Origin: an uncultured virus (IMG/VR IMGVR_UViG_3300038345_000393)
Taxonomy: Duplodnaviria > Heunggongvirae > Uroviricota > Caudoviricetes
Virus record (IMG/VR): IMGVR_UViG_3300038345_000393
DNA length: 64,000 nucleotides
Reading direction: 5' to 3' (one strand)
Numbering within the stretch: position 1 is the stretch's first letter; each line of letters begins with the position of its first letter. A program made the translations under genes and the position numbers. The notes beneath the pieces were generated by a model. That model worked only from the letters and a program-made list of their open reading frames with translations, searched no databases and was not told the origin of the DNA. Below are positions 9,081 through 61,988 of this stretch, in pieces.

Positions 9081-9116
9081 ATATCTATTTTTCTAATTGT
9101 GTGCAAGAAAGAAATG

Positions 9117-11708: not shown

Positions 11709-11885
11709 TTAATTGTTTGCTTTTATTATTTCATAAGCATCTACACCAGGTATTAATGCACAGCCACCCCATGTTCCATGAAGCTGGCCAACATCATCAA
11801 TATATGTAACTATGCCTATTTTGTTAGTGTAATTTGGTTCTCCAACCATATCAATAATTCTAATTGTGTCACCAACTTTTGCCAT
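11709..11885 (-). CDS. DUF4314-like small protein (58 aa; start re-called to 11885)
   Basis: AAGGAG RBS before ATG; GDTIRIIDM...GIVTYIDDVGQLHGTWG...LIPGVD. Confidence 0.75.
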   Translation of the reverse strand: MAKVGDTIRIIDMVGEPNYTNKIGIVTYIDDVGQLHGTWGGCALIPGVDAYEIIKANN

Positions 11886-11924
11886 AAGTGTCTCCTTTCG
11901 CCAGACATTAGGTGTCTTCAAAAG

Positions 11925-12280
11925 GAAAAATAAAAACCATCCACAATGAAAACACCACAATGTAGTTAACGGATGGTACTTCATTCCAACCAAACTTAAC
12001 TACTGGTGTTACATCCACTCCTTGGATGGCCACATGCTCAATATTGCTATTGTGTGGAGCGTAGAACTATACCCCCATCTAGACCTTGTCCCACATCAGG
12101 GTGGAGAGTTATCTAAGATTACTAATATAGCCCCTGGGCGATACTTTCCACATTGGTAGAAGCTAACACACCTCCTACCAGATTAATTGGCTGGGTTCAG
12201 ACTTCGTTTTAGTCAAGTTTACACCTACTCCAGAAGTATTTCATTCTTCGGTCTTTTGGCGCGGCATCTGACCATGCATT
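11925..12280 (-). ncRNA. candidate ~350-nt structured RNA or regulatory leader
   Basis: GC-elevated intergenic stretch with many helices (12154-62/12172-80, 12039-52 with GCAA loop on - strand, 12012-17/12023-28) ending in a terminator-like stem 11936-42/11971-77 and T-run. Confidence 0.55.
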
Positions 12281-12313
12281 TTTAATCACTTATAATTTTA
12301 AATCAAAATGAAA

Positions 12314-15428: not shown

Positions 15429-15613
15429 AACAAATCTCCCTTATTCTTAGTGCTTGTCTAAAATGCTATTTAATATGCAGGTGTAGCTAATATATTTTAG
15501 CAAGAATTATTAACTTTTATATCAAAATAAAAAATAAACTCATAGCGCGTAGACTATTTATAACATTATCTAGTTCTATATATTCGTTTTTGGATGAAAT
15601 TGTGAACTCTTTT

Positions 15614-16456
15614 TTATTCATCACTTGTTTCATTAACACTATTATTATCGAGGAATTGCTTGTGTTCTTTTTTAAACTTACTTATTGCCTTGCCATAAAC
15701 AACAACGCTTCCCCCCCACTCTTCATAATCGTCAGAAGATAATAAATTAAATATCGGCTTTTTATCCAAGCCAAAGATCGCTTGTCTATAATGTATATCA
15801 CTATCGTGTCTTATTTCGATGGTACCAACGTTTTTACCATCATTGATAAAGGTAACTTTTTGATAGTGGGTTTGGTCTTTAGTTCTCGCTTTAGAGCATT
15901 CACGTTTTATGTTTTTGGTGAGAATATCAACGACTTCATCGCTCAAAAAAACATGGAACTTGCCATCGTTTTGGATGGTTAAATACGTCACTTCTCCACA
16001 ATTGAACATTGATTTTGACAAAAACGCAGCAAACACATTGTCGTCTTGCAATTTTCCGCAAAGCGCAAGCATTTTTGGCTTAAGTTTTTGTTTGCAAGCA
16101 TCCTTATTTGTTTCATATTCAGAAAATGTTTTTGGATAACAATTTAAGCAGGATAAAATGAGTTCCCCAACTCCATCGCCTATTCCGCCCATGACTTTGA
16201 ATATTGTATCTGTTTTAAATCTATCAGCCCCATACAAGAATAACTGCCATCGCGTTTCGCCGCCCTTAATAGAGTGTGTATCACCATTTCTATCGACAAC
16301 ATCTTTTTTATCGGTCAGTCCGTTTAAATACTCATTATCCATCCCTATCAGCCTCGCAAATTCTTTCTCCGCGGCGTGGCCTGTTAAATTTACTTCACTA
16401 GCCTTTTCTGGACTCATTCCCCTTTTTGCCATAGCATAAAATCCTCCATATCCCAA
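15614..16456 (-). CDS. putative type II restriction endonuclease (PD-(D/E)xK-like)
   Basis: GHAAEKEF...KKDVVD...HSIKG pattern; directly downstream of a C5 methyltransferase. Confidence 0.55.
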   Translation of the reverse strand: MGYGGFYAMAKRGMSPEKASEVNLTGHAAEKEFARLIGMDNEYLNGLTDKKDVVDRNGDTHSIKGGETRWQLFLYGADRFKTDTIFKVMGGIGDGVGELILSCLNCYPKTFSEYETNKDACKQKLKPKMLALCGKLQDDNVFAAFLSKSMFNCGEVTYLTIQNDGKFHVFLSDEVVDILTKNIKRECSKARTKDQTHYQKVTFINDGKNVGTIEIRHDSDIHYRQAIFGLDKKPIFNLLSSDDYEEWGGSVVVYGKAISKFKKEHKQFLDNNSVNETSDE

Positions 16457-16638
16457 TAATTCATTATATCTTTATTATTTTTCTTGCGGAAACTACCAAT
16501 ACATAGCGCAACCAGGTTGATAGTTATTAATTTTCATTTCAATTGTATACAAAATAAAAGGGTGTTTTATTGAAAAACACCTTAATATTTCGCCTAATCT
16601 TTTTAAAAAAGAAGCACTATGAAGCTTTCCAAACCAAA

Positions 16639-17727
16639 CTAAAAATCAAACAAATCTGAATCAATATCTTTAAGCTGGTTAAAAATATGTTCAAGCAATA
16701 TCGTGACAAGATTCACATCCCAGCCATTGCCAGCTCTCTTAGATAATTGAGAATAAGATTGGCCTGCAAAAACAATATCGATATCTCTTCCAACACCAAC
16801 AAGACCTTCCAATCCCATTAATCTAAATTGTTCAGTCACTGACATTTTTCTGACAACTTCTTTGTCGCGGTGCGATTCAATAACTCTTAAAGAATTATGT
16901 TCAGGAAGAGTGATTGTTATAGAATAACCATCGTATTTAATTTTTTTGTTATAAATATCAAGACACAAAGCTGTATCAACAAAAAAGCTAGGAATGTTAT
17001 GTTTTACTTTCAAATGCTCAATTTGTTTTTTTGAAAGATATAATTCTTTAGGAACATAGCCATCTGGATCTAAAAAATCAGCCATTTTTAAACTATTTTT
17101 TTGTTGGGGCGGAACCATTGAAAAATTCTTTGGAAGACCACCAAGTCTAGCAAACATCCAGACTCGTTCTCTGTTTTGAGGAATGCCATAATCCTTTGAA
17201 TTTAGAACGGCCATGGCCAAAGGAGACTCATTTGGATCGTTAGAATTTGAGACATATCCCATCTCTCTAAGCATTTTGCACATTTGTTTACGTGTTTCTT
17301 CAAATTTTCTTGAAAGTATGCCTTTGACGTTTTCCATCAAAATGTATCTTGGTTTTTTCACTGCACATATACGCATAATATGTTGGAACAAAGTTCCTCT
17401 ACCATATGGATCATTCACACCTTTTTGCATTCCAGCCGTCGAAAATGGTTGACATGGGAAACCACCTGTAAACAGATCAAAATCAGGAAAATCTTTCTCA
17501 TTAGGATCAATCAAAGTAATGTCAGAATAATTTTTAATTGGCTCACCATTTTCTTGTTTATGATTTGCATCAAACAATTCGCTGGCCCATTTATCAATTT
17601 CAGAGTATGCAACAACAACGTAATCAAATTTATTGTGTCGGCTTTTGACTCGCTTTAAAGCAAAACTTCCTCCGCCGTAACCAGCAAATCCTTCAAAAAC
17701 TTTTAACTTTTTATATTTGGTTTTCAT
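16639..17727 (-). CDS. dcm: DNA (cytosine-5)-methyltransferase
   Basis: FAGYGG, GGFPCQPFS, MENVKG, PQNRERVW, AGNGW motifs. Confidence 0.95.
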   Translation of the reverse strand: MKTKYKKLKVFEGFAGYGGGSFALKRVKSRHNKFDYVVVAYSEIDKWASELFDANHKQENGEPIKNYSDITLIDPNEKDFPDFDLFTGGFPCQPFSTAGMQKGVNDPYGRGTLFQHIMRICAVKKPRYILMENVKGILSRKFEETRKQMCKMLREMGYVSNSNDPNESPLAMAVLNSKDYGIPQNRERVWMFARLGGLPKNFSMVPPQQKNSLKMADFLDPDGYVPKELYLSKKQIEHLKVKHNIPSFFVDTALCLDIYNKKIKYDGYSITITLPEHNSLRVIESHRDKEVVRKMSVTEQFRLMGLEGLVGVGRDIDIVFAGQSYSQLSKRAGNGWDVNLVTILLEHIFNQLKDIDSDLFDF

Positions 17728-17972
17728 TTAATATGACCCGCCTATATTATATATTACAACTATATATAAATACAGTTGTTTTTGTGTAGACATCATATCA
17801 CAAGTCTTAAAAACTAACCATCATTTTTTGATTTAATTGGAGCAAAATAGTCAGAAGCACATCATGTAATCAAAACGAATAAAACTACCACCACAACAAC
17901 ATTTGGCATTAGCCTATCGTTTCTAAAAATAAAATGTATTTTAGAAGATCGCAATGGTCTGTTAATTGTGCT

Positions 17973-19286
17973 TTAATTTAATACATCGTTTGACCAGCTA
18001 ATCCATATTTTTACAATTTGAGCCCTTCTTTTAGCTAAGCCAACAGAGATACCAGGATATTGTTCAACAAGATCTTTTGCAATCTCATCAATAGTTAAAG
18101 ACCACCCACCATTATTTGTCGCTTCTATGTATAACTTAGTAAAGACAATATTTCTTCTAATAGCTAGCGCAAATTCTTTTTTGAATTCGTCGCTACCAGT
18201 CTTCATTTTTCTCAGTTGTAATCCACAATCGGTAAAATCGTTTTTGCTGTTAATTATTCCCAAAAATTTAAGTGATGAAACCATATGAACAATTGTTTTA
18301 TGCGGATATTTGCTAAACCTTTTATCTAAAAAATCAAAATCAGAAATCATATCTTTGTTTCTTATCTTTATAAGCGGAAATAAAGATTCAACATTCTTGA
18401 TATATGGAAAAGCACAAGGAATTCCCCAAATAAGTATTTCTTCACCATTGTTTCTCAAGTTAGCCTTGCAATTAATACTGCGTTTAGTTGCCAGGCTCAT
18501 TACGTCGTAATACTCGTAATAGTGTTGTTTATCGTTGGTGAATTCTTTAACCACTTTGTCTGTGTAATTATTAGAAATAATGACATAAGCCCCTCTTTCA
18601 AGTGCGGCGTCACATTCGCGTTTAAGCTCTAAAAAATCCTTAAAAGAGAAACCAGATTTTTGATATGAGGTAAAACCATCATTTTCTTTGTAATCATAAG
18701 GAGGATCAATATAAACAACATCACCCATGCCTGCTTTTCTAATTGCATCCACATAGGAACCATTCATTATCACCACATCAGGTTTGTTTAAATAAGCAGA
18801 AATGGCGAGTATGTTTTTCTTATCATAGAAAGATTTAATGCTGTTTCGTCCAATTGGTGTATTAAAAAACCCTGCAGCATTAACGCGATACAAGCCGTTA
18901 TAGCATGTTTTGTTAAGAAAAATAAAACGAGCCGCTATTTCTAAATCAGATAGACATTCAAAATCAGCGTTTCTGTCCATTCTTCGAATTTCATAATAAA
19001 AATCTTCGCCTCTTTCTTGAAACAATCTATATAGCTCATCAAGACGAGACATCAAAGCATCCGGATTGTCTCTTATCGTTCTATAGGTCTTCATCAATTC
19101 GGAGTTTAAATCGTTAATGATCGTTTTGTCGTTATTGAGCGAAAGAAAAACGACACCACCTCCAACAAATGGCTCAATAAATCGATATGATTCTTTATTG
19201 TCATACTTGGTACTATCTTTTATTTTTTCAAGAATGATATCGATTATCTGTCTTTTTCCACCGGCCCATTTAACAAATGGTTTCAA
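17973..19286 (-). CDS. dam: Dam/DpnM-family N6-adenine methyltransferase with ~140-aa C-terminal extension
   Basis: KPFVKWAGGKRQ, EPFVGGG, NKTCYNGLYRVN, YIDPPY. Confidence 0.93.
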   Translation of the reverse strand: MKPFVKWAGGKRQIIDIILEKIKDSTKYDNKESYRFIEPFVGGGVVFLSLNNDKTIINDLNSELMKTYRTIRDNPDALMSRLDELYRLFQERGEDFYYEIRRMDRNADFECLSDLEIAARFIFLNKTCYNGLYRVNAAGFFNTPIGRNSIKSFYDKKNILAISAYLNKPDVVIMNGSYVDAIRKAGMGDVVYIDPPYDYKENDGFTSYQKSGFSFKDFLELKRECDAALERGAYVIISNNYTDKVVKEFTNDKQHYYEYYDVMSLATKRSINCKANLRNNGEEILIWGIPCAFPYIKNVESLFPLIKIRNKDMISDFDFLDKRFSKYPHKTIVHMVSSLKFLGIINSKNDFTDCGLQLRKMKTGSDEFKKEFALAIRRNIVFTKLYIEATNNGGWSLTIDEIAKDLVEQYPGISVGLAKRRAQIVKIWISWSNDVLN

Positions 19287-19290
19287 AATA

Positions 19291-20028
19291 TTACCCCGCT
19301 ATTTTAACAATATATTCGTAAAGATATTCTTCAACTTCATCTTCATCCATAATACTGACGTGACTTACATTGCTGAGACAAGATAAATGGGTGAGAACTC
19401 TATGAACTTTTTTAGTAGGAAGCGTTGTATTGCTTTCTTTTTCGTATTTAATAACAGCCTTGATAAAAGCTAATCTAGCTATCTCATTATCAACGAAAGT
19501 GTAAAATACCATACGTCTTAAACCAGCATGGCCTAAAACGTACTTAGTGTATTCAAATCTATCATCAAGCCTATCATCTATTGAAAGAGAAGCTAATAAA
19601 TATAATCTTCCGACAATATTCCTCGCCATAGATCTTCTAACGTCCCCTTCAAAAAATAAAGTTCCGGAAAGGGATTTAATTTTTTCGTTTTGATTTAATA
19701 AATAACTCAAATAGTATTTGTAGCCGAATTGAAGTGCAAAAGCAGGCATGAATTTGTTGTTACAAATAACAGCTTTGCCTAAGCCTGCAGATTCAAATGC
19801 TTCATAAAGCAATTTAGCGTTATCAAAATCGTATTTTCTAGGTTCGTCATTGTCATATTTGAGTTCAATATCAAAATCATAGGCGGTGTTTTGGAGTTTG
19901 TGCTCTTTAAAAAAATCATCAAGCCATTCATTTGAGGCAGGATTTTCCCTAATCATCTTTTCAAAAGATTCAATATTGTTTGTCGCAAATGAAACGCTAT
20001 CGTCTGTAAAGCTCTTAAATTTTGCCAT
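19291..20028 (-). CDS. DUF6339-like protein
   Basis: DFDNAKLLYE and RSMARNIVGRLY resemble DUF6339 as recalled; sits in GHKL/MTase operon. Confidence 0.45.
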   Translation of the reverse strand: MAKFKSFTDDSVSFATNNIESFEKMIRENPASNEWLDDFFKEHKLQNTAYDFDIELKYDNDEPRKYDFDNAKLLYEAFESAGLGKAVICNNKFMPAFALQFGYKYYLSYLLNQNEKIKSLSGTLFFEGDVRRSMARNIVGRLYLLASLSIDDRLDDRFEYTKYVLGHAGLRRMVFYTFVDNEIARLAFIKAVIKYEKESNTTLPTKKVHRVLTHLSCLSNVSHVSIMDEDEVEEYLYEYIVKIAG

Positions 20029-20030
20029 AA

Positions 20031-20915
20031 TTATTCTCCCTCATCCATCTTGTTTACCCAGTTCTTAACGAAAGACAAAAGATTGTTTATCGGTGTTTTT
20101 ACTAGCAACTGAGCAGCTTTGTAAGGCTCAATATCACTTTCAGTCGGATCTTGCTTAATTATTTTCTTATACTTTTCAGTAATGACTTTGTACCATTTTT
20201 TATCTTCGTATTGTGCATTAAATTCATTCATTTCTTCAGAATCAGGTGATTCGTGCATTTGCCTTAAAATATCAGTTAAAGCAGGAATAATGAAGGATGC
20301 TAGAATTACTTCAGATTTACGATTTTGAACTTTGTCGTATAGTTTTTTCATTTGCTTAGGAACAATGAAGTAGATAATGTCATCGTTAAGCTTATATGTC
20401 ACCGGACTAAGAGGATCCAAATTAATATTTTCTTGGAATTGAAAAATGGAGGTTTTTCTTCCTTCTTTCTTATGTTCTAGAGGAACTGTAACTTTTGAAC
20501 TAGTACCAATATCGTTATACTTTTCAACCCAATAATTATCCCCAGCCCATTCTTTTGTCAAATCCGAGTTCGTGTAAGAAAAAGATTCTTCAACTATAAG
20601 ATGGGCGGTAAATTCTACTCCTTTTTCGACATCCATTTTGTTAACATAAAACTTGATGTTTTTAGCATCATACGGAACTTTTTTAGAAATGTTTAATCCA
20701 ACAGGCTGACAGAAAAGTTTCACTACCACAGCTAGTTTTTTATCTAAAATCAGTTGGTTTATTTCTTGGTTGTCGATAGAATAGGTAGCTTCAAAACATA
20801 TCTGTTTATCGCTTACGCCTCTTGCGACCTTTAAATCGAATTTTGTTTTTTTATAATTGTTGAGTTCCTGGCTCAAATAAGGAAATGATGAGGTTTGTTG
20901 CTTATTCGTTTGCAT
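20031..20915 (-). CDS. hypothetical protein coupled to the GHKL ATPase
   Basis: 294-aa ORF overlapping upstream gene; SFPYL start, beta-rich N-half, WY near C-terminus. Confidence 0.65.
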   Translation of the reverse strand: MQTNKQQTSSFPYLSQELNNYKKTKFDLKVARGVSDKQICFEATYSIDNQEINQLILDKKLAVVVKLFCQPVGLNISKKVPYDAKNIKFYVNKMDVEKGVEFTAHLIVEESFSYTNSDLTKEWAGDNYWVEKYNDIGTSSKVTVPLEHKKEGRKTSIFQFQENINLDPLSPVTYKLNDDIIYFIVPKQMKKLYDKVQNRKSEVILASFIIPALTDILRQMHESPDSEEMNEFNAQYEDKKWYKVITEKYKKIIKQDPTESDIEPYKAAQLLVKTPINNLLSFVKNWVNKMDEGE

Positions 20916-22914
20916 TGATATTTACCTCCCACATATAAATTTTGTGCTCTTCGAGTTTCACTGATATTTTGTAAAGAGCTCCTTTTTTCATAGTATCCAT
21001 GTAAACTTTATTATCCTTAGTGGTGAGCTGTTTGCCATTCAAGGTAGCCTCAACAACATTGATTGGCTCATTTTCATCTCCTGAACCAGATTTAAGTATT
21101 TCTATTTCGACATCCTCGCCAGATTTAGAAGGAGAGAAAGAAAGTTCAAACAACCCTTCTTCTAAATTTTTAACAGGCATTTTTGAAGATATTGTTGAGA
21201 CGGGTTTTCTTATCATCATTTTTTGTCCATCTTCATCTATGACAACGTTGTTATCATCTTGGCCAGGGTGTGGGTCGTTACCTTTCCCTTTATTTTTGCC
21301 TTCTGGATGAGAACCTGAATCTGTTCCGTCGTCAGTTTCAATGCCTTTTCCTTCTTCATAGCCTTCAGCTTCTCCCTCTGGATCTGGTTCTGTTGCCTTA
21401 GTTTTTTTAGGTTTTCTTTTTTTAGAAGGTTCTTTCTTCTTAATTGGTTCAAAAACTATTTCATCTGTTGGAAGACCAGAATCTTCATTTGCTGTGCCGT
21501 CCAATGTGTCTGAATTGTTGTCTGAATTCCACCCTTCATCACTAGCCCAATCAAAATCAGAAGATTTGCCATAGTCTTGTTCTTCTATTTTTTCAAGTTC
21601 TGATTCAGCAAAATTCTTAACCGAATCAATCGCAGCATAAATCACATCTTTAGAATAATTTGTGTCTCTATATTTCAGCTTCGACCATTTTTTATGAGAG
21701 GCATCTTCAACAGATTTCAATTCTTCACATAATTCTTTACCTTTAATAAGCAAAATGCCTGTATATGGAATAGAACTGTTTGTTTTAAAAATTTCAATTC
21801 TCATTTTTGTTTTCCATCTGTATGAATAGACTCTATTTAAAGCTGTGCTGCTATTAACAGAAATAAGCATATTTAATTCTCTGTCGCCACCAGTATCTTT
21901 TACCGCAGTAGCAAAAGGATGATTGAGTGTTTTATATAGTTCTTGTGCAATTGACATTGTGCTATCTTTTTCAAAATACATTGGGTTTAAAATATTTGTG
22001 TACAAGTTGGCCTTCTTAGTTTCCAAAAAATCATTGTGGATTGAATCACTTATTGTGACTTCCAAATCTCCATCATTAATAGCTGGTAAAAAACTAATGA
22101 TAGCCTCGCCCATCATTTTTGATGTCCACCCTTCTTCAGCCAAAAAGAAAGGGACAAAGATATCAGTACCATATTCATTTTCATTTCTAACATAATTAGG
22201 ATCGATATCATTAATTAATCCATTGTTTGGAGTATTCATTTCTTGAGCTTTAACTTCTTGACTAACACAATAGCCTATGCCTTGTGTCCAATCAGGGAAG
22301 CCTTTGCCGTCATCGTCAACGTCTTTTGCCACCAATCTGGCATAGCCAATATTTCCTTGTTCACCATCTATGGTTGACGTTGAAACAAATATTGTCCTAA
22401 TTGCAGAATTTAAGAAAATAGCTGCTTTGCCTAAACCCTTGGAACCGCCAGACCCATCTTCTTTAACATCTTTACCACTACCGCTAATAAAAGCAAACCA
22501 AGGCATTTGCCTTTCCATTGGAGTTGAAACGCCACATAAGCCCTTAGTGTTTTTATCTGAGATCCTGAGCCATGTTATACCTTTTGTTTGAGATTGAACA
22601 AAGCATTGAAAAATCCTATTCATCAACGCTCTTTCTTTTACTTCTGGTTTATCTTTTAATTTATCCCTATCAAGCCAATCTTTAACATAATCAAACAAAT
22701 ACTCATTTAAAGCTTTGAAAGAATTGGAGTCGGTCTTGAATAAAGAAAACTCTACACGTACAGGCTCATTACCGCTTCTAGCATCAAGCGAATTTTGGAT
22801 AACTTCTCTAGCAAGATTTCCAAGTGGATCATCACCAAAATCATCTTGCCCTAAATCTTGTTTGCCACCAGCGTTCCCTCTACGTGCAAGTGGCCAATAC
22901 CATGATAAACTCAT
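20902..22914 (-). CDS. GHKL (HATPase/MORC-like) ATPase
   Basis: LAREVIQNSLDA, LRISDKNTKGL, GGSKGLGKAA, GTDI; acidic/Gly-rich linker near the C-terminus. Confidence 0.8.
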   Translation of the reverse strand: MSLSWYWPLARRGNAGGKQDLGQDDFGDDPLGNLAREVIQNSLDARSGNEPVRVEFSLFKTDSNSFKALNEYLFDYVKDWLDRDKLKDKPEVKERALMNRIFQCFVQSQTKGITWLRISDKNTKGLCGVSTPMERQMPWFAFISGSGKDVKEDGSGGSKGLGKAAIFLNSAIRTIFVSTSTIDGEQGNIGYARLVAKDVDDDGKGFPDWTQGIGYCVSQEVKAQEMNTPNNGLINDIDPNYVRNENEYGTDIFVPFFLAEEGWTSKMMGEAIISFLPAINDGDLEVTISDSIHNDFLETKKANLYTNILNPMYFEKDSTMSIAQELYKTLNHPFATAVKDTGGDRELNMLISVNSSTALNRVYSYRWKTKMRIEIFKTNSSIPYTGILLIKGKELCEELKSVEDASHKKWSKLKYRDTNYSKDVIYAAIDSVKNFAESELEKIEEQDYGKSSDFDWASDEGWNSDNNSDTLDGTANEDSGLPTDEIVFEPIKKKEPSKKRKPKKTKATEPDPEGEAEGYEEGKGIETDDGTDSGSHPEGKNKGKGNDPHPGQDDNNVVIDEDGQKMMIRKPVSTISSKMPVKNLEEGLFELSFSPSKSGEDVEIEILKSGSGDENEPINVVEATLNGKQLTTKDNKVYMDTMKKGALYKISVKLEEHKIYMWEVNINANE

Positions 22915-23308: not shown

Positions 23309-23335
23309 TCCATCATTTTTAATAATGGTTTATCA

Positions 23336-23870
23336 TTGTTGTGCATTGGAACCCAGTGTATGCCATCTTGCTGATGGCTGGGGCCCAACCAAGTAAGGCA
23401 ATAATGTGGGATACTGCGTTAAAGTCAAGACCTCGTTAGTAATAACTAGGTATTCGGAACTAAAAAACCGCTTTGGTTGGTGGCGCGATACGCTCTTCGA
23501 TGTAAACAACTACCTGATAGGCACGACAAGTGGCTCCGTAGAAATACGTCCCGCGTCCAGATGTTAGGCTTGAGAACCTAATATCTCCGCTCTCGAAACA
23601 AGTGTTCGCTTTGATGGATGGTAACATCCTATAACTGTTTGGTAGGTACCATTAGGAGAACAGCGATATTTGATCAATAAATGAGAATATCATCTGCTGA
23701 AGCTCTCTGAAGGTTGGAAGGCAATTCAGATCCTTCCCTAGGTTACGGTTAGTAATAACCCATTCTGGAAGTATGAGGATCGCTACCTCTTACTCAGCCC
23801 AGCGTGCTAGTGTGTGAATAACAAATTAGAGTAAGTGTTGTAAGGTGAAGGCCTCCGATGCCTTTTTTAT
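23336..23870 (+). ncRNA. large ornate structured ncRNA candidate (~530 nt)
   Basis: GC-rich, no credible ORF, four GNRA-capped hairpins, long-range closing helices, AATAAT -10-like element upstream, terminator at 23848-23868. Confidence 0.75.
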
Positions 23871-23886
23871 TAAGTGAGGTATTAAA

Positions 23887-32640: not shown

Positions 32641-34265
32641 ATGAAAACGATTGTTAAAGATATTATTGAGAAAAATATAAATAGATTCGAAGAAGAAATT
32701 AACGGCCGGCAAAATGATCGTGTCGTTGCATCATCGTTTTATTACAATCAACTCGGATTGTTTTTTGATGAAGAATATTCGATTATGCTCACAAAACAAA
32801 GAGATCTATCAAATCAAAGAGATACAAAAATAAGAGATATTCTAATAATTTCAACAATCAGTGATTTGTGTGGCGTTTTTAAAATTTCTATAAAATTCCC
32901 AAAGCCAGACGTCAATACATATATCGGTAGCGAAATCGATTTATATGATCGCTTTTACGGATACACCTTTCAAATTGGTGATGTGCTATATAGATTTGAT
33001 TCAGGTGTCAATAAAGAAGAGTGGTCAAGTTCATTGCTGACAAATAATAATGCGAAGAAAATAATTGGGATATCTTTTGCAAACGAAAAACATGTTCTAT
33101 ATCCAAAAAGACAAATAAGTCTTAGGTCTTTTTTTAATACATATTTTGTAAATGCTTATTTTAAAGAAAACGAAGTATTTGATTTATTTCTAAAAGAAAC
33201 GAAGGAAGCCATTAATAAGGCTATTGAAGAAAGTGCTTTTAAAACTATTTTTAACATGAACTCGCTAGGATCTTTAGAGAGTTTTAAGGAAAAATTATCT
33301 TCTGAGTTGCTCAAGTTCAACGATTTGTGTTGCTATATCTTTGATAGTGAAAAAGATGGTCAAAAATTGAAGCTTTCTGAAAGTGACTTATCAATAATCA
33401 AAAGAAATTTTATCGATAGCAATAGATATAAATATCTTTTAAATGATTCTGATTTTTCAAAATGTTTTNNNNNNNNNNTAAAGAACAAAAAAGCCTAGAT
33501 TACTCTTCTGTTGTTTTTGATTACTTTAAAGCAGTTGAATTGTTAATTGGCTATTATGCCATAGAGGACAAAAAATATCTTACGTTTTGTAGCGCAAAGC
33601 ATTCATGCGATGAATGTTCAAAAAATAATAAATGTTTTCATTATGTTTTGGATGATGGAAGACGTTGCCTCGCTACAAACAATTCATCAATGTTATATAA
33701 AATCAACAACATGTTGCTTAATAAGAAAATGCATATATTATCAGAACAAGGAACATACTCTGTATATCTAGCGCTAAATGATTACAGAGGAAACAGCAGA
33801 AATGGATATATACATACGGATATTCTATATAGTATGGAAGAAGTTGAAGCAATTAGGCGCAATACATGGGCTTGTTTATATTATGTTTTGGGTGGTTTTA
33901 AACTTCCGAAAGAGCTACAGGAGCAAAAAGATTTTTTCAATGATAGTTATTCCACTTTTTACAACATTATCAAGTATCAAATGCCGTATTCTGCTGCCAA
34001 AAAATTGGTGTTTGAAAAAAACGGTAATCTTATTAATGCATATTGGGACTACAATAATTATTTAGAAGAAACAAAATATGATGAGAAAACAACAACAATA
34101 ATTACTCCGCTAGTGTTTTATGCTGTTGAGGACTTTAGTAAAGACCCAAACGAAATGGATGAAAAAGAAAAATCTAAACTTAAACGGATTGTTCTTTCTC
34201 CTGAAAACTTACCAGAAAACATATATCGTGTATTCGATGGTAAAAAAATCAAAATAGAGTTCTAA
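32641..34265 (+). CDS. hypothetical protein with C-terminal HEPN-like motif, interrupted by an assembly gap
   Basis: Two ORFs joined across N-run 33469-33478; YFKAVE...RNGYIH (Rx4H). Confidence 0.55.
33469..33478. other. assembly gap (10 N)
   Basis: Run of n characters. Confidence 1.
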
Positions 34266-37523: not shown

Positions 37524-38975
37524 CTACCCAAGAACGGATAGGATTTCGGAGGACTTTAAGTGTTTCTTTTCAAAGAGAAGTTCACCTAACTTTTTAATTT
37601 GATTAGCGTGCTCTTTGATATATTTAGTAGCTTCTTTTTCGCATTTTTTTAGTAAGCGTTCAATTTTGCGCTCCATCTTTCTTCGTTTAGTAGCGGTTTC
37701 GATTCTTGAACCTTGTCTTACAGGAGGTAAAGTTTCCCAAGCGGAAGAATAACCACACATATTTATCATATTGTAGGCATTAATTCTCGCTCTTTGGAGG
37801 TCATCTTCACAACCTCTAGAACCTCTACCAAAGAAAATCTTTTGAGCAAGAAGACCCGCCATTGAGATTTTAATATCAGCGATAACTTTATCATATGGCC
37901 AGAAGCCTCTTTCCACTTCTTTGGCGGTAAAGGCGCCTGAGGCACCACTGATATTGATACGATTGATTAAGAAGTACTGTGGATAAGCGTGAGCCATACA
38001 AGCGTGCGAAGCTTCGTGAATTGCCACTTCGATATTATCTTCTTCTGGAGAATCTTTAACTCTATCAGTAATGTTATAGATGGATTTAAAGAGCATATCA
38101 CTAGTGATATTTTCAAAGCCGTTTCTTAAGACTAAGTCATTAACAACCGCTTTTACACCAGCACAAGAGATACCGTTTAGAGATAACGCCACTTCTTCTT
38201 CATCAAAGTCTTCTGGAATATTAACGCCAAATTCTTTTAAATGAATTTTTAATAGTTCTAAAGCTTCTTCTCCTGATGGATATGGAATCTTAATGAGTTT
38301 TTCTAATCGACCATTACGTAATAATGGATCTGGTATTTCTCTAATATAGTTAGTCGCCGCAAGCACTAAAATGTCATCAGAAGATTCAACACCATCAAGA
38401 TTTTCTTGAAGAGCTCTAATCACTCTTCTTTCTCTATTGATTAATAAATCTAATTCATCAATAACGACTACTGCGTGACCTGTTTCTCTCGCTTTAGCGA
38501 ATGTTTGAGTAATACCAGCAACGATATTAGTTTCATCACCTTTAAGAATAAAGACAGGTGCATCAACGCATCTAATGATTTCTTTAATTAGTAAGGATTT
38601 ACCATTACCTGGTTCACCAAAAAGAATGACGCCTTTAGGAATGGATACACCTTTGGCTTTAAGTTCTTTAGAACGTTTAAACCAATCAATAACGTCTAAT
38701 AGTTCTTTCTTTTGATTAACGTGACCAATAACTCTTTCTAAAGGTTTTTCACCTTCATTTAAGCCGTGGTTATATATGAGTTCATAACATTGTTTGTTAT
38801 TATTACTATTTTCTTCTTTTTTATCTTCAGAGTCTTTTTTATTTTCTTCTTGTTCATAAGCACGATGCATTTCTCTAATTTGTGCTTCGATTTCTTCAAT
38901 ATCAAGTGGTTCGATATCTTCGAAATCATCATCGTCTTCAATAATGTCATCGTTTAATGTGTTTTTATCTGCCAT
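37524..38975 (-). CDS. FtsH-like AAA+/M41 metalloprotease without TM anchor
   Basis: GEPGNGKS, IDELD, AATN, RNGRLE, HEASH, GCEDDLQRA; acidic soluble N-terminus. Confidence 0.85.
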   Translation of the reverse strand: MADKNTLNDDIIEDDDDFEDIEPLDIEEIEAQIREMHRAYEQEENKKDSEDKKEENSNNNKQCYELIYNHGLNEGEKPLERVIGHVNQKKELLDVIDWFKRSKELKAKGVSIPKGVILFGEPGNGKSLLIKEIIRCVDAPVFILKGDETNIVAGITQTFAKARETGHAVVVIDELDLLINRERRVIRALQENLDGVESSDDILVLAATNYIREIPDPLLRNGRLEKLIKIPYPSGEEALELLKIHLKEFGVNIPEDFDEEEVALSLNGISCAGVKAVVNDLVLRNGFENITSDMLFKSIYNITDRVKDSPEEDNIEVAIHEASHACMAHAYPQYFLINRINISGASGAFTAKEVERGFWPYDKVIADIKISMAGLLAQKIFFGRGSRGCEDDLQRARINAYNMINMCGYSSAWETLPPVRQGSRIETATKRRKMERKIERLLKKCEKEATKYIKEHANQIKKLGELLFEKKHLKSSEILSVLG

Positions 38976-41966: not shown

Positions 41967-43361
41967 TTATTTGCTTGTTTTTGTAGCTTCTTTAATCATG
42001 TTTATTAATTTCTCTAATTCTGGATCGTCTTTAATCTTTTCAGCTTCTTTCAAAGATAGAACTTGCGGTTTGAATCTGCTTTTATCAGACGTAATTTTAA
42101 GCAGCAAAAGATTATGATAAACAAAATCGTGGTTAACAATTATCTTGTCAAAATGCTCTAAAAGATCACTGATGTATAACGGTTTTCTTCTTCTAGAACT
42201 ACACATGCAGGCCATAACAGTAATCCCACCACCAGCCATAAATGCCTTTTTATTTGGTTCTACAATAACCGCAACAGGTGGATACACATGTTTTGTACAA
42301 TTGGCTAAATCGTTGGTGTCTTTATATTTCAAAGAAACAAGCTTCTTTGCCAAAGTCTCAACTTCCTCTCTTGTTTTAAAAGCAAGAGGTATCAAATTGT
42401 TGCTTAATAACGGATAACAATTATAAATTTTTAGCGTGTAAAGCAATCTTTTAAGAATTGAAACATGATCCCATTTTCTGCCTTTTTTCTCTCCAACCAA
42501 ATAACTAGGTAAGTGTTCTGAATATCCTAACTTACGAACAGTATCAAAAACTTTGTGTTTGTAAGAGATTGTTCCTTCTGCTTTTAATTTGAAATTAAAT
42601 ATATTAAAAATAGTATCGAGGTTTTGATTGATAACATTTAAATAGAAAAAGCCACTTCTTTCACTCGAATGAAAATATGAATGAATTCTCTTCAGATAAG
42701 ATTTCATTCTCATCTGAGAAACATTGTTGTTATTTGCATCCGATATACTGTCTGGTTCTTTGCGACAATTGTCACTGTTTATTAAATAAATATTCGTGTT
42801 AATGACGTTATCTAATTCATTTCTGATTTTGACTATTTTGTTAAGTTGTTTGTAAACGGCGTCTAATGTATCTTCATTTTTTGCAATGCTTCTCTTTATC
42901 GAATTAGAAAGAGTCTTTTCAATATAATCCTTTGTGGATAAAAAGTACGAGTCTGTATAATCAACAATATTCTTAACCAGGAAATATTCCTCTTTTAGTG
43001 CATCAAACGATAAAGTTTTCACATAACTGTAATAATGTTCTGTGCTTTTCTCGGCAACAAAATAAGGTTCCTCTCTCTGGTCAGCAATTTTGACATATTC
43101 TTTTAATTCTTTAACGTTTTTGAAAAGTCTATAATTCTTATTTCGCAAATAACTAATTTCATAAGCGCAAGCCATTGACATTAAATGGCCGCCTAAATGC
43201 CTGTCATCAATACAGATTTGACATAAATCGCTGATTTCATTAAGGAACATATCAGGATGCATCAAAGGCAAATTATGATCCTGCGCCAATTTAACAACAT
43301 CAGCTTTTTCTTTTTGTTTAATATGTAAAATCACATACAAACGATTATTAAATAGTTTCAT
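41967..43361 (-). CDS. hypothetical protein with two MAC-motif segments
   Basis: 464-aa ORF overlapping the LRR gene. Confidence 0.65.
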   Translation of the reverse strand: MKLFNNRLYVILHIKQKEKADVVKLAQDHNLPLMHPDMFLNEISDLCQICIDDRHLGGHLMSMACAYEISYLRNKNYRLFKNVKELKEYVKIADQREEPYFVAEKSTEHYYSYVKTLSFDALKEEYFLVKNIVDYTDSYFLSTKDYIEKTLSNSIKRSIAKNEDTLDAVYKQLNKIVKIRNELDNVINTNIYLINSDNCRKEPDSISDANNNNVSQMRMKSYLKRIHSYFHSSERSGFFYLNVINQNLDTIFNIFNFKLKAEGTISYKHKVFDTVRKLGYSEHLPSYLVGEKKGRKWDHVSILKRLLYTLKIYNCYPLLSNNLIPLAFKTREEVETLAKKLVSLKYKDTNDLANCTKHVYPPVAVIVEPNKKAFMAGGGITVMACMCSSRRRKPLYISDLLEHFDKIIVNHDFVYHNLLLLKITSDKSRFKPQVLSLKEAEKIKDDPELEKLINMIKEATKTSK

Positions 43362-44202
43362 CTTTTTTCTCCTTGCTTACAGTTTTGTATTTAGTTACTG
43401 GAACTACGTGCCCATCAAAAACACAATATCTATCCGTTCCATATTCTTCAGGAAGAAGTATCTTCATGTTTTTATAAGGTTCCTTAATATAGACAAGAAA
43501 ATAAGGGTGATCTGTCACGAATAAAGATGTGTCCTTATAATTAACCATATTAGGAAGTTTGATTGTCATATCTGGATTTTGACAAAAAGAAAAATGATCA
43601 AGCTCCACAATATGCCTGCAGTATTCATATGGTGCGCCACGTGGGACTGTCTCTAAAATTTCAACGTTCTTAATATTGCTTCTATCAAAACAGCGACACG
43701 GAATCAGCTCGATGGTACGTCCAACTTTAAACTCTTCAATTGTGCAACATTGAAAAGCGCCATCACCAAGATGCTCAGCATTCTTAAAATCAATTGTTTT
43801 TAAATGCCCACCGCACATAAAAGCATACGAGCCTATTGATTTCAAACTCTCTGGGAAATCTAATCTATTAAATTTGCAAAACCCAAAAGCATATGCATCA
43901 ATAACTATCAGATTATCTGGGAATGTAATCTCTTCTAATGAAGCACCAAAGAAACATCTAAAAGGAATGTGAGTCATTCTTGGCAGTTTGATGTATTTAA
44001 GAGAATGACATGCAGAAAAGCACTCGTATCCCATTTCAACAGTATCGCCTTCAAAAATAATATTATTTAACTTAGTGCAATGGAAAAATGCACGATTTCC
44101 TATGTATTTTACCTTTTGTGAAAAAACAACTTCTTGTATTTCACTGAGTGCATATTCGTTATCTAAAACAGTTTCTTTATTGATATAAATGGATTCATCC
44201 AT
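43348..44202 (-). CDS. BspA/LRR_5 leucine-rich repeat protein
   Basis: IGNRAFFHCTKL, FPESLKSIGSYAF, LGDGAFQCC repeats. Confidence 0.85.
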   Translation of the reverse strand: MDESIYINKETVLDNEYALSEIQEVVFSQKVKYIGNRAFFHCTKLNNIIFEGDTVEMGYECFSACHSLKYIKLPRMTHIPFRCFFGASLEEITFPDNLIVIDAYAFGFCKFNRLDFPESLKSIGSYAFMCGGHLKTIDFKNAEHLGDGAFQCCTIEEFKVGRTIELIPCRCFDRSNIKNVEILETVPRGAPYEYCRHIVELDHFSFCQNPDMTIKLPNMVNYKDTSLFVTDHPYFLVYIKEPYKNMKILLPEEYGTDRYCVFDGHVVPVTKYKTVSKEKKDETI

Positions 44203-44268: not shown

Positions 44269-44619
44269 TCAATGATCATTCCTACTGATAATTCTTAGCG
44301 TGCCAACTTCGTACGAGGGACCGTTACGAATAATTTGTTTATAAATATCCGTTTGTTTAAACTCTTCAAAATCATTTACTCGGATAAAATGGCTTCTTGC
44401 TTTGCAAAGGCACATTGCTGATAACCATCCATAGCCATCAATGCCAATTCCCAATCTCTTCGATTGAATAGACCCATCTTTATTAGGGTGTTCTACTAAG
44501 TCTTTATTTAAGAGCGGTGAAGCGTAGTGATTAGGAAAAAACTCTTCTAGAAATTCTTTCCATTTCTTTTCGTCTTCCTTTGTCTTAATATGCACAAAGG
44601 CTTCTTTCCAATTTTCCAT
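44269..44619 (-). CDS. hypothetical protein, first gene after the SAM riboswitch (start re-called to 44619)
   Basis: AGGAGG RBS before MENWKEAF; the longer ORF-track start lies inside the riboswitch expression platform. Confidence 0.7.
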   Translation of the reverse strand: MENWKEAFVHIKTKEDEKKWKEFLEEFFPNHYASPLLNKDLVEHPNKDGSIQSKRLGIGIDGYGWLSAMCLCKARSHFIRVNDFEEFKQTDIYKQIIRNGPSYEVGTLRIISRNDH

Positions 44620-44652
44620 ATAATCCTCCTTAACACCCATAAAGAGGAAATT

Positions 44653-44679
44653 AAAAACTCCCATCGTTACGATAGGAGT
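44653..44679 (-). terminator. riboswitch-controlled intrinsic terminator
   Basis: ACTCCTATCG-TAA-CGATGGGAGT followed by TTTT on - strand. Confidence 0.8.
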
Positions 44680-44696
44680 AAAGTCCAAATTTATTT

Positions 44697-44789
44697 ATTC
44701 CCATCGTTCAAGCTTTAGCACCTTACTACGATTTAGCAGGTTGCTGGTGGATCTCTGGGCTTGTCCCTAACCACTCTCTTTATGGATAT
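44697..44789 (-). promoter_or_regulatory. SAM-I (S-box) riboswitch, short-P4 variant
   Basis: - strand: CCATAAAGAG-AGTGGTTAGGGACAAGCCC-AGAGATCCAC-CAGCAACC...AAGGTGCTAA...GATGG follows the SAM-I layout. Confidence 0.88.
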
Positions 44790-44888
44790 GACACAATATT
44801 AGATTGTTTGATTGATAAAATAAAGTTTTTTAAGTGAATGTCAGCACTTTTGGACACTAAAAACCTTTATACAGTGTCTAGTAAAATG

Positions 44889-44917
44889 TTCACAAATGAC
44901 GACATTTTTGCTATAAT
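44889..44917 (+). promoter_or_regulatory. sigma70/sigmaA promoter of the WYL-like gene
   Basis: TTCACA-17 nt-TATAAT with extended -10 TG. Confidence 0.7.
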
Positions 44918-44994: not shown

Positions 44995-46266
44995 ATGGCC
45001 AAAGAAAACGCTCATAACGGTAAACAAGTCAACGCGACAAGATTAGAACTTTTTATCGCTTTACAATACTTATTAGAAAAGTGTCCAGATAAAGAACACA
45101 CTTCTAAAACTATTGATCTTCAACAATACGCTGAAGATAAATTTAATGTCCTTTTAGATAGAAGAAGAGTTAATGATATCTTCGCTAGTTTAATGGATTT
45201 CACCACTAAACATCCTAAGGTTTTGCCATATGTTATTAAACAAGTGGAAGATAAACCACGCTATTACATTAAAAAGACATTATTTAGTAATAAAGAAATT
45301 GAATCTATCGCTAAAGCCATTCAAAACGATACCTCTATTTCCACTTCAAAAGCGGAAAAATACGCTGATGCATTTTTAAATGTCGCTTGTAATGAAGCGG
45401 ATAAAGAAAAGATTAATAAAAAACTTAAGAAAAGCGAGATGCGTAAATTAAGAGTTAGTGACTTTGAAATGAAAGTCAAAGAAAACTACGAATACTTAAG
45501 AGATATGCAAATGCGCTTCTACTTTAAGTTTAAAAGAGTGGTCAAACGCACTGATTGCACTGATTATCAGACATTTAAACTTCTTTCTGAAACGGAAAGA
45601 AATAAAGAACACGCTGGTATTGTTTTTGAAGTTTACACTGTTAAAAAACAAACTGATGTTTGTATCTATTTACCAGATATGAAACAAGCGGTCATCGCTC
45701 ATATGGAAGATATTGAGCTCAATACCGCTTTTGAACCAGTCCCTCAACTTAATACAGTGAGTTTCTATATTGGTGAGGAGATTACTCTAAGTGACTGGGT
45801 TAATAATTATTACAAAGGTTCAACTGGACAAACTTATCCAATTAGATTTGCCTTCCCTGCTGGTTTAGATAACACCATCTTAAGAAAGCACCTTAAATCT
45901 TTTGAAGCATTCTTTAATGAACAATTAAAGTATGAAATCAAAGAAAGAAAAGTTAAAAAAGAATTATCAGATGGTAGAACCGAAGAAGCCGTTGTTAATG
46001 AAGTGTTTGCCACCACTAAACATAACTATGAATCATTTAGAAAATGGTTCTGGGAAAGTGAAAGTAAACCATATGAAACTGTTGTAGTTCTCTTCCCATC
46101 CGCCTTCAATGATCGTTTATTAGGCCCTATCACTCGTCGTTTCCAAGCGGTTATTGATAACTTTGGCTTTAACAGTGAGCACGGTAAAACCGAAAGAGAA
46201 GTCTTTGAAAAACGAATCGCTGAACTTAAAAAGAAAAAGGAGGCCGGAGCCTCCAATCCTAATTAA
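44995..46266 (+). CDS. WYL-family-like transcriptional regulator (divergent)
   Basis: N-terminal wHTH RLELFIALQYLLE...EH...DRRRVNDIFASL and FSNKEIESIAKAIQ...IS typical of wHTH-WYL proteins. Confidence 0.65.
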   Translation: MAKENAHNGKQVNATRLELFIALQYLLEKCPDKEHTSKTIDLQQYAEDKFNVLLDRRRVNDIFASLMDFTTKHPKVLPYVIKQVEDKPRYYIKKTLFSNKEIESIAKAIQNDTSISTSKAEKYADAFLNVACNEADKEKINKKLKKSEMRKLRVSDFEMKVKENYEYLRDMQMRFYFKFKRVVKRTDCTDYQTFKLLSETERNKEHAGIVFEVYTVKKQTDVCIYLPDMKQAVIAHMEDIELNTAFEPVPQLNTVSFYIGEEITLSDWVNNYYKGSTGQTYPIRFAFPAGLDNTILRKHLKSFEAFFNEQLKYEIKERKVKKELSDGRTEEAVVNEVFATTKHNYESFRKWFWESESKPYETVVVLFPSAFNDRLLGPITRRFQAVIDNFGFNSEHGKTEREVFEKRIAELKKKKEAGASNPN

Positions 46267-59111: not shown

Positions 59112-61988
59112 CTATTCATCTAGCATCTGTTCCATACCTGACAAAAGTTTATCAATGGATGAATGCTTATAATAATATTTATCAAATAGATCAAAACTAG
59201 CGTATCTCTTATTTGTTCTTTCTAGAGATGGGATACCACCATCGACATCAAAGAGATCTTTATATGTATACCCAAGATCTTTTTCTGAAATGATGTATAA
59301 AAGAATGAATAATAAGGTATATGGTGTTTCTTTTGTTAACCCTTCAATCATTTCAATTAGTTTTCTGGTTTTTTGAAGAGTGCTAATACCTGATTTGATT
59401 TCTTCGTAGCACTTATTAATCTTGTCATTGAATTCTCTTTTTTCCATATCAAAGGACTTGGAACTCTTTTTGGCTTGATTTTTCTTATAAATAATCTTCT
59501 TTAGTTTCTTTAATTCTTCTAAAGCATGATTGATTTGTTTGTAATTATCACTAGATAATCCCTTAGTGGTTATATCTTTTCTAACTAAAGAGAAGAATGG
59601 TATGGTTTCAACATTTTCCATTGATTCTTTGTTTTCATAAGTATATTTCCATAAGCGATCCATTGTGGTATTGAAGAATGGTCTGTTGTTTTCAATGTGT
59701 TCTTTTAAATGACTATTTATTTTACCCGCTGTTGGTTTATCTTTTGTTTCTGGGGCAACATAATAGAAGAAAACAGGCTCTTCATCAAAACCATTATCAA
59801 TCGCGTATTTATTAACTTTGTTAAAAACACTGACGGTAGTAAAATCAAATGACTTTTTAGCACTATCAATTTCAGCACCTGCTAAAACAGCAAGAATAGC
59901 AATCTTGTTATATAGTTCGACATCATCAAAGCCTTTATTTGGATTATCATACTTATCAGTATTGTTCCAATAATGGGAATTTAGTTTTTGTGATAAGTTA
60001 ACAATCATACCAACTCTGTTGTTAGCAATTTTATTATCTAAATCGATAATGTTGCCAATTAAGTCTTTATTAATATTTAAACCAATTGATTTGCTATCAA
60101 AACCTGTACAAGGAACAGGAAACTTGTGATAGTTCTTTTTGGTAACGTTAACAATAACTCTATTATTAGTTAATAAAAGTGTATCGCTATCATAGTCAGC
60201 ACCATTAAGACGTTGTTGTATATTGTTATTAATTGCGTCCACGACTGCGATATTTCTTGTTAAATTAAACCATTTGTCTAAATCTTTTGGTTTTTTATTG
60301 TGGGCGTAGAGCAAATTACCCATTGTCATATGAGGGGCACGTGAACCAGCGATTTCTTCGTCAGTAAAGAAACTGCAATATATTTCATCTCTATTTAATG
60401 AAGAAACTATACCATTGGCTTCTAATAAGGACTTATCATCTTTCTTAATGATGTATTGAAGATATTCAAGAGGATTACCAAATAATGTGGCATATGTCCC
60501 TTCAATTAATAGTCTTCCATCATATAACTTTAAATGGAAACTATCGATGACGTTATTGAATAAGTGATTCTTGAATAGGTTTGTTTTCTTGAAGTCTTTG
60601 CAAAGATCAAGCATTTCATAACAAACTTTGTTTTTAAATGAGTAGGAAGAATAATTTAATTCATTATCTTCGATAGCGGTATCTTCACTATCGTCTTCCA
60701 TATCTTCATCATTAGTGACTTCAATATCTTGTTCTTTAACTTCGCCTTTTAAGAATAACTTCACATATTCTGGAGTGTTTTTAATATCACGTATTTTATT
60801 AACGTAATCAAAATATGGTGATAATAATGGTCTAAGTTCAGTATCTTTCTTAAGACTCAATGTATTTAACAACTGATATGTTGTCTCTACCATATCACCA
60901 TTAAAGAATCTTGTTTCTTTATCGGTTTTAACAATACCAAATGTTGACAAGCGATTATTACTAATAGCGTCACACCATCTCTTGATGTTTTCTTTATTAA
61001 AACCACCTTTTGTCATCTTAAGATATTTAAGACAAGATTCAGAAACCACTAAAACGATATCTTTGATATCTGTAGCAAAGGTAATGCCGTTAAGTTGATC
61101 AACTGATGTGATGTTATTGTATTTAAACCAATCTTGTAATCTAGTATTAAAAGTGCAAGCTTTAAAGAATCTATTTCTTAATAGCATCATGCCTTTAAGA
61201 TGATCTCCACTATAACCACATTCGTGGAAGATGGAGTCATCCATTAAACCTTCGCCATCAAAGATATTATTTTCGATATCGTTTTTGCCTCTTTGGGCCA
61301 CTAAACCTTCACCTTTAATATAATTTACTTTAATAACTTCTTCGTCTTTTAAAACGTGCTTAAAGTCTTTAACAAAGAGGATATTATATGGATTTAACTC
61401 TAAGGTTTTTGTGAGGCTAGATAGGGATAAGGCTTTATAAGCTTCATATGAAGTTAAGTTATCTAGATAACCGTCTTTCTTTTCGTTTAGTCCCGCTTTA
61501 GACCAACTATTCATTAACTTATATAGTTTTTCTTTTATAAATAAACAGGATGCACCTTTAGCCGCACTAGCGGTTCTTTTATAGCGAACATATTTCTTAC
61601 CGTTTAGAATAAAGCCGTCTCTATAAATCGCTTCTCTCATTTGACTAGGAGCGTAGGTATCTCCCACTATTTCTTTTTTATCGAAAACGCGTTCTTTTTT
61701 ATCATTCATCCATAAAGAATATTCAAAAGAAACATTAACAAAGTCATCAGTGTAATATTCACCATTAATTGTTTTGCTTGTTAAGGTATTGTTCTGAATA
61801 TCAAATTTCTTTTCATATTCAAGAAGATATAAAAGATCGAGATTAAACGCTAAAACATCACGATAATGCTTGTCGAAAGATTCTTTAGTGTTTTTGACTT
61901 CCAACTTTTCATTAACGATATATTGAGCACGGTAAATCTCCGCTGCTTGTAAAAGTATGATTCTAAAAGAAGGACAGTTGCTATTCAT
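59112..61988 (-). CDS. YonO / eukaryotic RdRP-like single-chain double-psi-barrel RNA polymerase
   Basis: IFDGEGLMD, MLLRNRFFKAC, GSRAPH, QQRLNGADYDSD (DxDxD), AEIDSAKK. Confidence 0.8.
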   Translation of the reverse strand: MNSNCPSFRIILLQAAEIYRAQYIVNEKLEVKNTKESFDKHYRDVLAFNLDLLYLLEYEKKFDIQNNTLTSKTINGEYYTDDFVNVSFEYSLWMNDKKERVFDKKEIVGDTYAPSQMREAIYRDGFILNGKKYVRYKRTASAAKGASCLFIKEKLYKLMNSWSKAGLNEKKDGYLDNLTSYEAYKALSLSSLTKTLELNPYNILFVKDFKHVLKDEEVIKVNYIKGEGLVAQRGKNDIENNIFDGEGLMDDSIFHECGYSGDHLKGMMLLRNRFFKACTFNTRLQDWFKYNNITSVDQLNGITFATDIKDIVLVVSESCLKYLKMTKGGFNKENIKRWCDAISNNRLSTFGIVKTDKETRFFNGDMVETTYQLLNTLSLKKDTELRPLLSPYFDYVNKIRDIKNTPEYVKLFLKGEVKEQDIEVTNDEDMEDDSEDTAIEDNELNYSSYSFKNKVCYEMLDLCKDFKKTNLFKNHLFNNVIDSFHLKLYDGRLLIEGTYATLFGNPLEYLQYIIKKDDKSLLEANGIVSSLNRDEIYCSFFTDEEIAGSRAPHMTMGNLLYAHNKKPKDLDKWFNLTRNIAVVDAINNNIQQRLNGADYDSDTLLLTNNRVIVNVTKKNYHKFPVPCTGFDSKSIGLNINKDLIGNIIDLDNKIANNRVGMIVNLSQKLNSHYWNNTDKYDNPNKGFDDVELYNKIAILAVLAGAEIDSAKKSFDFTTVSVFNKVNKYAIDNGFDEEPVFFYYVAPETKDKPTAGKINSHLKEHIENNRPFFNTTMDRLWKYTYENKESMENVETIPFFSLVRKDITTKGLSSDNYKQINHALEELKKLKKIIYKKNQAKKSSKSFDMEKREFNDKINKCYEEIKSGISTLQKTRKLIEMIEGLTKETPYTLLFILLYIISEKDLGYTYKDLFDVDGGIPSLERTNKRYASFDLFDKYYYKHSSIDKLLSGMEQMLDE

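Follow-up and report, generated by a model that had tools for sequence, protein, structure and literature searches.

In textbooks, SAM-I riboswitches regulate sulfur metabolism; at this locus such a leader stands in front of genes with no recognised sulfur role. The window, by which we mean the whole 64,000-nucleotide stretch analysed here, is an AT-rich accessory stretch from an uncultured virus record (Caudoviricetes). The elements located upstream of the first gene are the following:

44796..44824, minus strand: candidate sigma-70 promoter with weak consensus (-35 at 44824-44819, 17-nt spacer, -10 at 44801-44796), proposed from a pattern scan
44698..44788, minus strand: P4-less SAM-I aptamer with P1, P2 with a kink-turn-like region, P3 and the L2-J3/4 pseudoknot, from covariance models
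44699..44706, minus strand: P1 3′ strand, which is also the antiterminator strand pairing with 44677-44670, from predicted folds
44649..44679, minus strand: intrinsic terminator with U tract (10-pair stem 44679-44657), from a terminator scan
44633..44648, minus strand: anti-Shine-Dalgarno segment, from the sequence and predicted folds
44624..44632, minus strand: ribosome-binding site of gene 1, from the sequence

Cmscan matched positions 44788-44698 on the minus strand to RF00162 (SAM-I) with 53.6 bits against a gathering threshold of 44.4 (E 1.5e-9); one lower-scoring match of the same clan was suppressed. The sequence following P1, where SAM-I/IV and SAM-IV would have P5 and a second pseudoknot, is AU-rich and variable. 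The SAM-contacting nucleotides in the SAM-I numbering (U7, G11, C44, A45, A46, C47, U57, G58 and U88) are all present in the window copy. The J1/2 and P3 internal-loop positions follow the SAM-I consensus and lack the changes of the spermidine type, as defined in a figure legend. The P4 helix of the four-way junction is absent, and the C8-G86 pair closing P1 is replaced by A·G. A decayed riboswitch was considered and ruled out, as both deviations are traits of the whole family; position 8/86 is unpaired in 40 of the 41 rows of the P4-less alignment described below. The pseudoknot consists of four pairs with 100 % of the cells paired, three of them showing two-sided changes in single rows. Judged from the aligned sequences, the P4-less A·G form is a SAM-I subtype with a covarying pseudoknot and not a relic. 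Its likely ligand is SAM, because the core positions are invariant, the spermidine-type changes are absent and P4-less aptamers have been reported to be functional. The latter report concerns natural SAM-I aptamers of an Actinomycetota group, which reportedly function without P4 at lower affinity (PMC12714719).

We searched RF00162 in 151 genomes from the order of G001, the uncultured Bacilli assembly that carries the closest placed relative of gene 1 (locus L001). The copies recovered fall into two classes: those with P4 stand before metK, and those without it stand before metK or before unrelated genes. When 41 P4-less copies were aligned, 90 % of the cells were paired, and 18 of the 28 pairs showed two-sided changes. 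No shuffle among 500 scored as high, and slid controls gave 3-7 pairs; these controls lean in favour of the structure because it was taken from the SAM-I consensus and the window copy. The family model R1 built from this alignment gives the window aptamer 98 bits, the window copy being among those it was built from. R1 matched 43 of 151 genomes of the order and 40 of 151 of the family (the samples overlap), as well as 62 of 151 of the class and 37 of 151 of the phylum, where many of the matches are weak and canonical. A search with the exact pattern found six viral contigs with the leader.

We collected 100 distinct copies from order, family, viral and metagenome loci and dropped three below 45 bits. 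Among the remaining 97, a set that leaves out a few weaker copies before ABC transporters, the first gene is non-met in 67 copies and metK in 15; 6 copies precede a pduL-metK operon, 5 are unassigned and 4 are truncated, with five labels assigned by hand. The P4-less subtype thus stands before metK or pduL-metK in 21 copies; accessory or mobile genes follow about two-thirds of all copies found, and 29 of the 67 non-met first genes are miscellaneous. None of the 67 non-met copies varies at positions A6, U7, C44, A45, A46, C47, U57, G58, A87 or U88 of the SAM-I numbering, and G11 is kept in 66 of them, at a mean identity of 74 %; these figures are inflated, as the copies were picked by a model that rewards these very positions. 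At locus L043, two near-identical promoter-aptamer copies (3001-3090 and 4125-4214) lie 1.1 kb apart with a different small gene behind each. The housekeeping metK of G001 (L150, 350-450) has its own P4-containing SAM-I-like leader, recognised by eye and missed by the RF00162 search.

Downstream of the aptamer, the 3′ arm of the terminator repeats the P1 3′ strand (44706-44699). We place the transcription start provisionally near 44789; a separate promoter scan did not list the candidate promoter. In the 125-nt intermediate, the P1 3′ strand is predicted to pair with the terminator 5′ arm (-29.2 kcal/mol), and the 146-nt RNA is predicted to form P1 and the terminator (-35.2 kcal/mol). The predicted P1/terminator and antiterminator folds are mutually exclusive in the window copy. 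Taken by themselves, the folding z-scores (-1.5 and -1.8) are modest, so the structural support comes from the covariance-model score and the covariation in the family. In 53 of 55 non-met copies, the terminator and the antiterminator each have a predicted energy of -6 kcal/mol or better. The original prediction had proposed an intact SAM-I aptamer with a terminator and an antiterminator arising from a repeat of the P1 3′ strand. The aptamer was recovered by cmscan above gathering, and the second proposal agrees with the 44679-44657 stem and with the two alternative folds; "intact" applies to the core and the pseudoknot, and not to P4 or the C8-G86 pair. On these models, the window leader is very probably a working SAM switch.

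The leader seems to carry another layer of control between the terminator and gene 1. In the predicted OFF fold, 44648-44640 pairs with 44632-44624 and conceals the ribosome site, and in the predicted ON fold the 5′ end of the RNA (44789-44776) forms a 14-bp helix with 44646-44633. The unconstrained fold of 44789-44611 contained the antiterminator and the 5′-end helix, with an unpaired probability of 0.97 for the ribosome site; with P1 forced, the same RNA formed the terminator and the hairpin hiding the ribosome site (unpaired probability 0.0). Among copies whose first gene starts 40-125 nt past the aptamer, 45 of the 55 with a non-met gene and 3 of the 14 with a met gene have a complement of the 5′ strand between terminator and start codon that scores better than shuffles at p <= 0.05 (Fisher p 4e-5, a value that overstates independence since many metK copies are close kin). 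A stricter count, requiring at least 9 of 10 pairs, gave 39 of 56 versus 2 of 14, and in 31 of the 39 the P1 part was paired too. Compensatory forms of the pairing between 5′ strand and anti-Shine-Dalgarno segment occur in L067, L126 and L129; among the copies with a changed 5′ strand, 7 of 10 fell short of 9 pairs. Taken together, the leader apparently keeps its genes off at two levels, through transcription termination and through a concealed ribosome site. At L057 (2781-2913) the terminator is absent, and the anti-Shine-Dalgarno segment and the 5′-strand complement are kept (-16.9 kcal/mol), giving a purely translational version.

Three genes follow the leader in the window:

44269..44619, minus strand: gene 1, 116 aa, a small alpha/beta domain that we call class X, from the ORF and a predicted model
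43348..44202, minus strand: gene 2, a BspA-type leucine-rich repeat protein (LRR_5), from Pfam
41967..43361, minus strand: gene 3, 464 aa, with a weak class-X-like domain at the N-terminus and a stronger one at about residues 324-420, from profile and BLAST searches

Neither gene 1 nor gene 3 had a Pfam match, and for gene 1 we found no family match and no clear structural match to a phage SAM lyase or another solved fold. Both lacked a match in PADLOC at E 1e-5 (2023 library) and in PHROG, and no gene-1 relatives were found in viral contigs. The N-terminal domain of gene 3 is tied to class X by BLAST and a weak HMM match, and hhalign found no link; the class X domain probably occurs twice in this protein. 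The two predicted domain models each draw weak, overlapping matches to uncharacterised phage proteins. The superfamily as we delimit it is a chain of moderate profile links, with E from 1e-7 to 6e-3 against 1e-2 or worse in controls, and the L077 family was not tied to it (E 0.058).

The class X domain comes first in about a third of the 67 non-met copies. Homologues of gene 1 with 73 % and 48 % identity follow the leader in other contexts, and the leader also precedes related small proteins in many genomes. When we started from the protein, the riboswitch was found directly upstream in 6 of 7 distinct new loci; one homologue of gene 1 (L074, 56 % identity) did not have it directly upstream. 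The link between leader and class X is, with good probability, under selection. The BspA gene was considered as the riboswitch target and rejected because it is not conserved: L001 has no BspA gene, and a contig from run X3 joins the leader straight to gene 3. On this comparative picture the BspA gene is a passenger and the small domain is the conserved partner. The original prediction had named a hypothetical gene, a BspA-like gene and another hypothetical gene without a sulfur role, which the Pfam results bear out, and a linkage unique to this genome, which would have spoken for recent capture, is not what we find. L001 also contains a weak drum RNA match (9071-9176, 31.9 bits, below gathering).

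Some copies of the leader plainly serve SAM supply, namely those before metK and those before operons running from MoxR to a second MetK. In the MoxR-AAA operons that follow the leader, the last gene encodes a divergent MetK: at L034 (3153-7307), and also at L037, L147, L114 and L061, the order is leader, MoxR AAA, small gene, a gene of about 430 aa and divergent MetK. The latter shows 23-25 % identity to housekeeping MetK, with many catalytic residues kept and the GAGDQG loop altered. At L048, L051-L053, L068 and L132 the leader is followed by a gene that we take to be PduL-like, a TSCPD gene and metK. At L168, L173, L174 and L175 it precedes a gene of about 480 aa that resembles priA, perhaps a relic of a metK-priA operon. 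An FGase-like gene comes first in 8 of the 67 non-met copies and QueT and EamA transporters stand behind some; these FGase-like and transporter genes could serve methionine salvage. More distant P4-less variants are followed by ABC-transporter ATPases, which we assume to resemble MetN. Of the 72 rows that are non-met or unassigned, 6 have metK-like sequence downstream; the other 66, the window among them, show none in the stretches examined, which reach from 127 nt to 45 kb past the leader and in most cases 1.5-5 kb. metK occurs somewhere in 68 of 70 genomes checked. A metK concealed in the window was ruled out by tblastn, which found none.

Defence genes occur in the surroundings of the leader. 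In the window, a cluster at 9695-22914 (minus strand) encodes a GmrSD-like protein, two type II REase-like proteins, two DNA methylases and a three-gene PDC-M33 system; the R-M, GmrSD-like and PDC-M33 genes lie about 22-35 kb from the riboswitch, the nearest R-M gene about 25 kb. At other copies the neighbours include DNA methylases, Type I HsdR, Fic, HipA-like, WYL, macro and ADP-ribosylhydrolase proteins together with many ordinary metabolic ones, in a tally of 116 neighbours chosen from about 35 non-met loci without a control set. At L076 and L078, C5 DNA methylase genes follow closely behind the leader and its class X gene; at most class X loci, the stretches examined contain no R-M gene. 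L077, L189 and L190 lie on large mobile contigs amid small genes.

Several other features of the window were recorded. An FtsH-like AAA and M41 protease (37524-38975, minus strand) has no obvious membrane segment, and its relatives stand behind the leader in L137 and L113. A divergent 423-aa gene (44995-46266, plus strand) has no Pfam match and a strong promoter match at 44889-44917; by eye its product looks like a winged-helix/WYL regulator. A 958-aa protein (59112-61988, minus strand) has no PADLOC match, and its motifs are reminiscent of cellular or phage RdRP-like polymerases. We also found a ROOL RNA (23328-23874, plus strand, 203.9 bits), a COG3943 RNA motif (11952-12063, minus strand, 86.3 bits) and, at about 33470-33490, a run of N that interrupts an ORF and is probably an assembly gap.

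We propose that the leader is a portable SAM-OFF element that would free an emergency gene once SAM falls. With SAM present, P1 would be closed and the terminator made, and on any read-through RNA the ribosome site would be concealed. With SAM absent, the P1 3′ strand would take the terminator 5′ arm and the freed 5′ strand the anti-Shine-Dalgarno segment, so that transcription and translation would open jointly. Comparison across loci shows the leader repeatedly joined to small alpha/beta proteins of phage-like character, on mobile elements and in islands rich in defence genes. Upon SAM destruction, class X proteins may act in host-phage conflict, arresting the cell or neutralising the SAM-destroying activity, and the riboswitch would in this way stand guard over restriction and methylation systems that depend on SAM. 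PARIS and PrrC are examples of guard-type anti-phage systems, which detect phage counter-defence against R-M and then respond. The logic proposed here is alike; unlike in those systems, where a protein reads a phage protein, sensing would fall to an RNA that reads a metabolite, and the effector is putative. Tight double repression is what toxic genes need, as established for type I toxin mRNAs, and for this reason we count the double lock in favour of a guard role. According to one study, SAM is cleaved and MetK inhibited by T3 SAMase, which also overcomes type I R-M and BREX, raises expression of the met regulon and shows greater toxicity when the cells carry the type II system EcoRV (10.1101/2023.02.27.530186). 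As T3 SAMase depletes SAM, a SAM-OFF switch would respond to such an attack. The phage SAM lyase suggested at the outset as the trigger fits the setting and stays speculation. A guard response to phage SAM destruction is our leading inference on the purpose of the leader, held tentatively and at somewhat less than even confidence. Speaking against it are the lack of PADLOC and PHROG matches for genes 1 and 3, the distance of about 25 kb to the nearest R-M genes of the window, the many metabolic neighbours at other copies, the gene-1 homologue at L074 and the moderate profile links of the superfamily; the metK-like sequence at six loci and the eight FGase-like first genes point towards metabolism. 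Its fuller form, an immune sensor in which the double-locked leader detects phage SAM destruction and frees class X to abort infection or block the lyase, with sister cassettes supplying back-up MetK, is possible but on the doubtful side.

The leader could instead be an ordinary SAM-I riboswitch serving metabolic rescue, with the odd targets (second MetK, FGase-like deformylases, transporters and class X) being unrecognised helpers of methionine or SAM supply. The 21 copies before metK operons and the divergent MetK ending the MoxR-AAA operons agree with this, as do the FGase-like first genes (8 of 67), deformylases that might free methionine, and the QueT, EamA and MetN-like transporters. However, 66 of 72 rows, the window among them, are without metK-like sequence in the stretches examined, class X resembles phage proteins and not enzymes, and the translational lock is rare among metK copies. 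We regard metabolic rescue as rather unlikely but as a real rival, since a second MetK ends some of the operons. Low SAM would also leave host DNA under-methylated, and a small phage-derived protein might then damp a restriction enzyme or methyltransferase, averting self-cutting or sparing SAM. The C5 DNA methylase genes at L076 and L078, the mobile contigs of L077, L189 and L190 and the greater toxicity of SAMase beside EcoRV, as reported in that study (10.1101/2023.02.27.530186), would suit such restriction alleviation; the scarcity of R-M genes at class X loci in the stretches examined and the lack of any likeness found to known anti-restriction proteins make it improbable.

A neutral account would treat the promoter-leader as a recombination hub in accessory islands, with genes parked there because they are kept off and induction at low SAM being incidental. 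Its partners are scattered over the aptamer tree, built from few columns: class X requires 22 changes where shuffling gives a mean of 22.0, FGase 8 of 8 and MoxR 5 of 5. Tandem copies in G090, the joint between leader and gene 3 in run X3 and the 29 of 67 miscellaneous first genes point the same way. Yet the pairings of the ON state (antiterminator and helix of the 5′ strand with the anti-Shine-Dalgarno segment) are conserved and show covariation, for which there would be no need if the genes were simply to stay silent, and the same protein families retain the leader down to 45-48 % identity; we give neutral shuffling little credence. Least probable, at a slim chance, is that the P4-less A8·G86 subtype senses another ligand, as the spermidine riboswitch does. 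The A·G fixed instead of C8-G86, the lost P4 and the unusual gene associations could be read so, and SAM-I variants that reject SAM have been described (PMC10853860). The spermidine class shares the SAM-I scaffold, the OFF switch and the unexpected genes; however, its altered J1/2 and P3 internal loop are consensus here, leaving the pocket unchanged, and no polyamine-synthesis gene was seen among the first genes with Pfam matches. The subtype also precedes metK in 21 copies, although that source includes a metK-upstream variant as well (PMC10853860).

Compared with SAM-I (S box, RF00162) in general, the window subtype has the same P1-P3, pseudoknot, ligand-pocket nucleotides and OFF logic of terminator and antiterminator, and is likewise found before metK. 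It differs in lacking P4, in the A·G closing P1, in the second, anti-Shine-Dalgarno lock freed by the 5′ strand and in standing before accessory or mobile genes in about two-thirds of its copies. The Actinomycetota aptamers have lost P4 too; unlike them, the subtype occurs in Bacilli and on viral or mobile contigs, and such gene context is not mentioned in the accessible text of PMC12714719. Among titles and beginnings of abstracts, with subscription papers mostly outside this coverage, we found no report of SAM riboswitches controlling defence or mobile-element genes, of a two-layer leader at accessory genes or of a link to a phage-like domain, and the accessible part of a riboswitch review mentions neither phage nor toxin (PMC10907184). 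Within that coverage, the aptamer belongs to a known class whose P4-less forms were already described, and the new part would be the two-layer platform for accessory genes and its link to class X.

The survey suggests a riboswitch subtype that is mostly used for accessory and mobile-element genes and that has a tighter, two-layer switch. It yields a list of candidates, small uncharacterised proteins that would be expected to be induced by SAM loss, and makes it possible to test directly if bacteria perceive the destruction of SAM with which phages counter restriction and BREX. Should the role prove metabolic, the leader would still give access, through guilt by association, to several unannotated families and to the divergent MetK.
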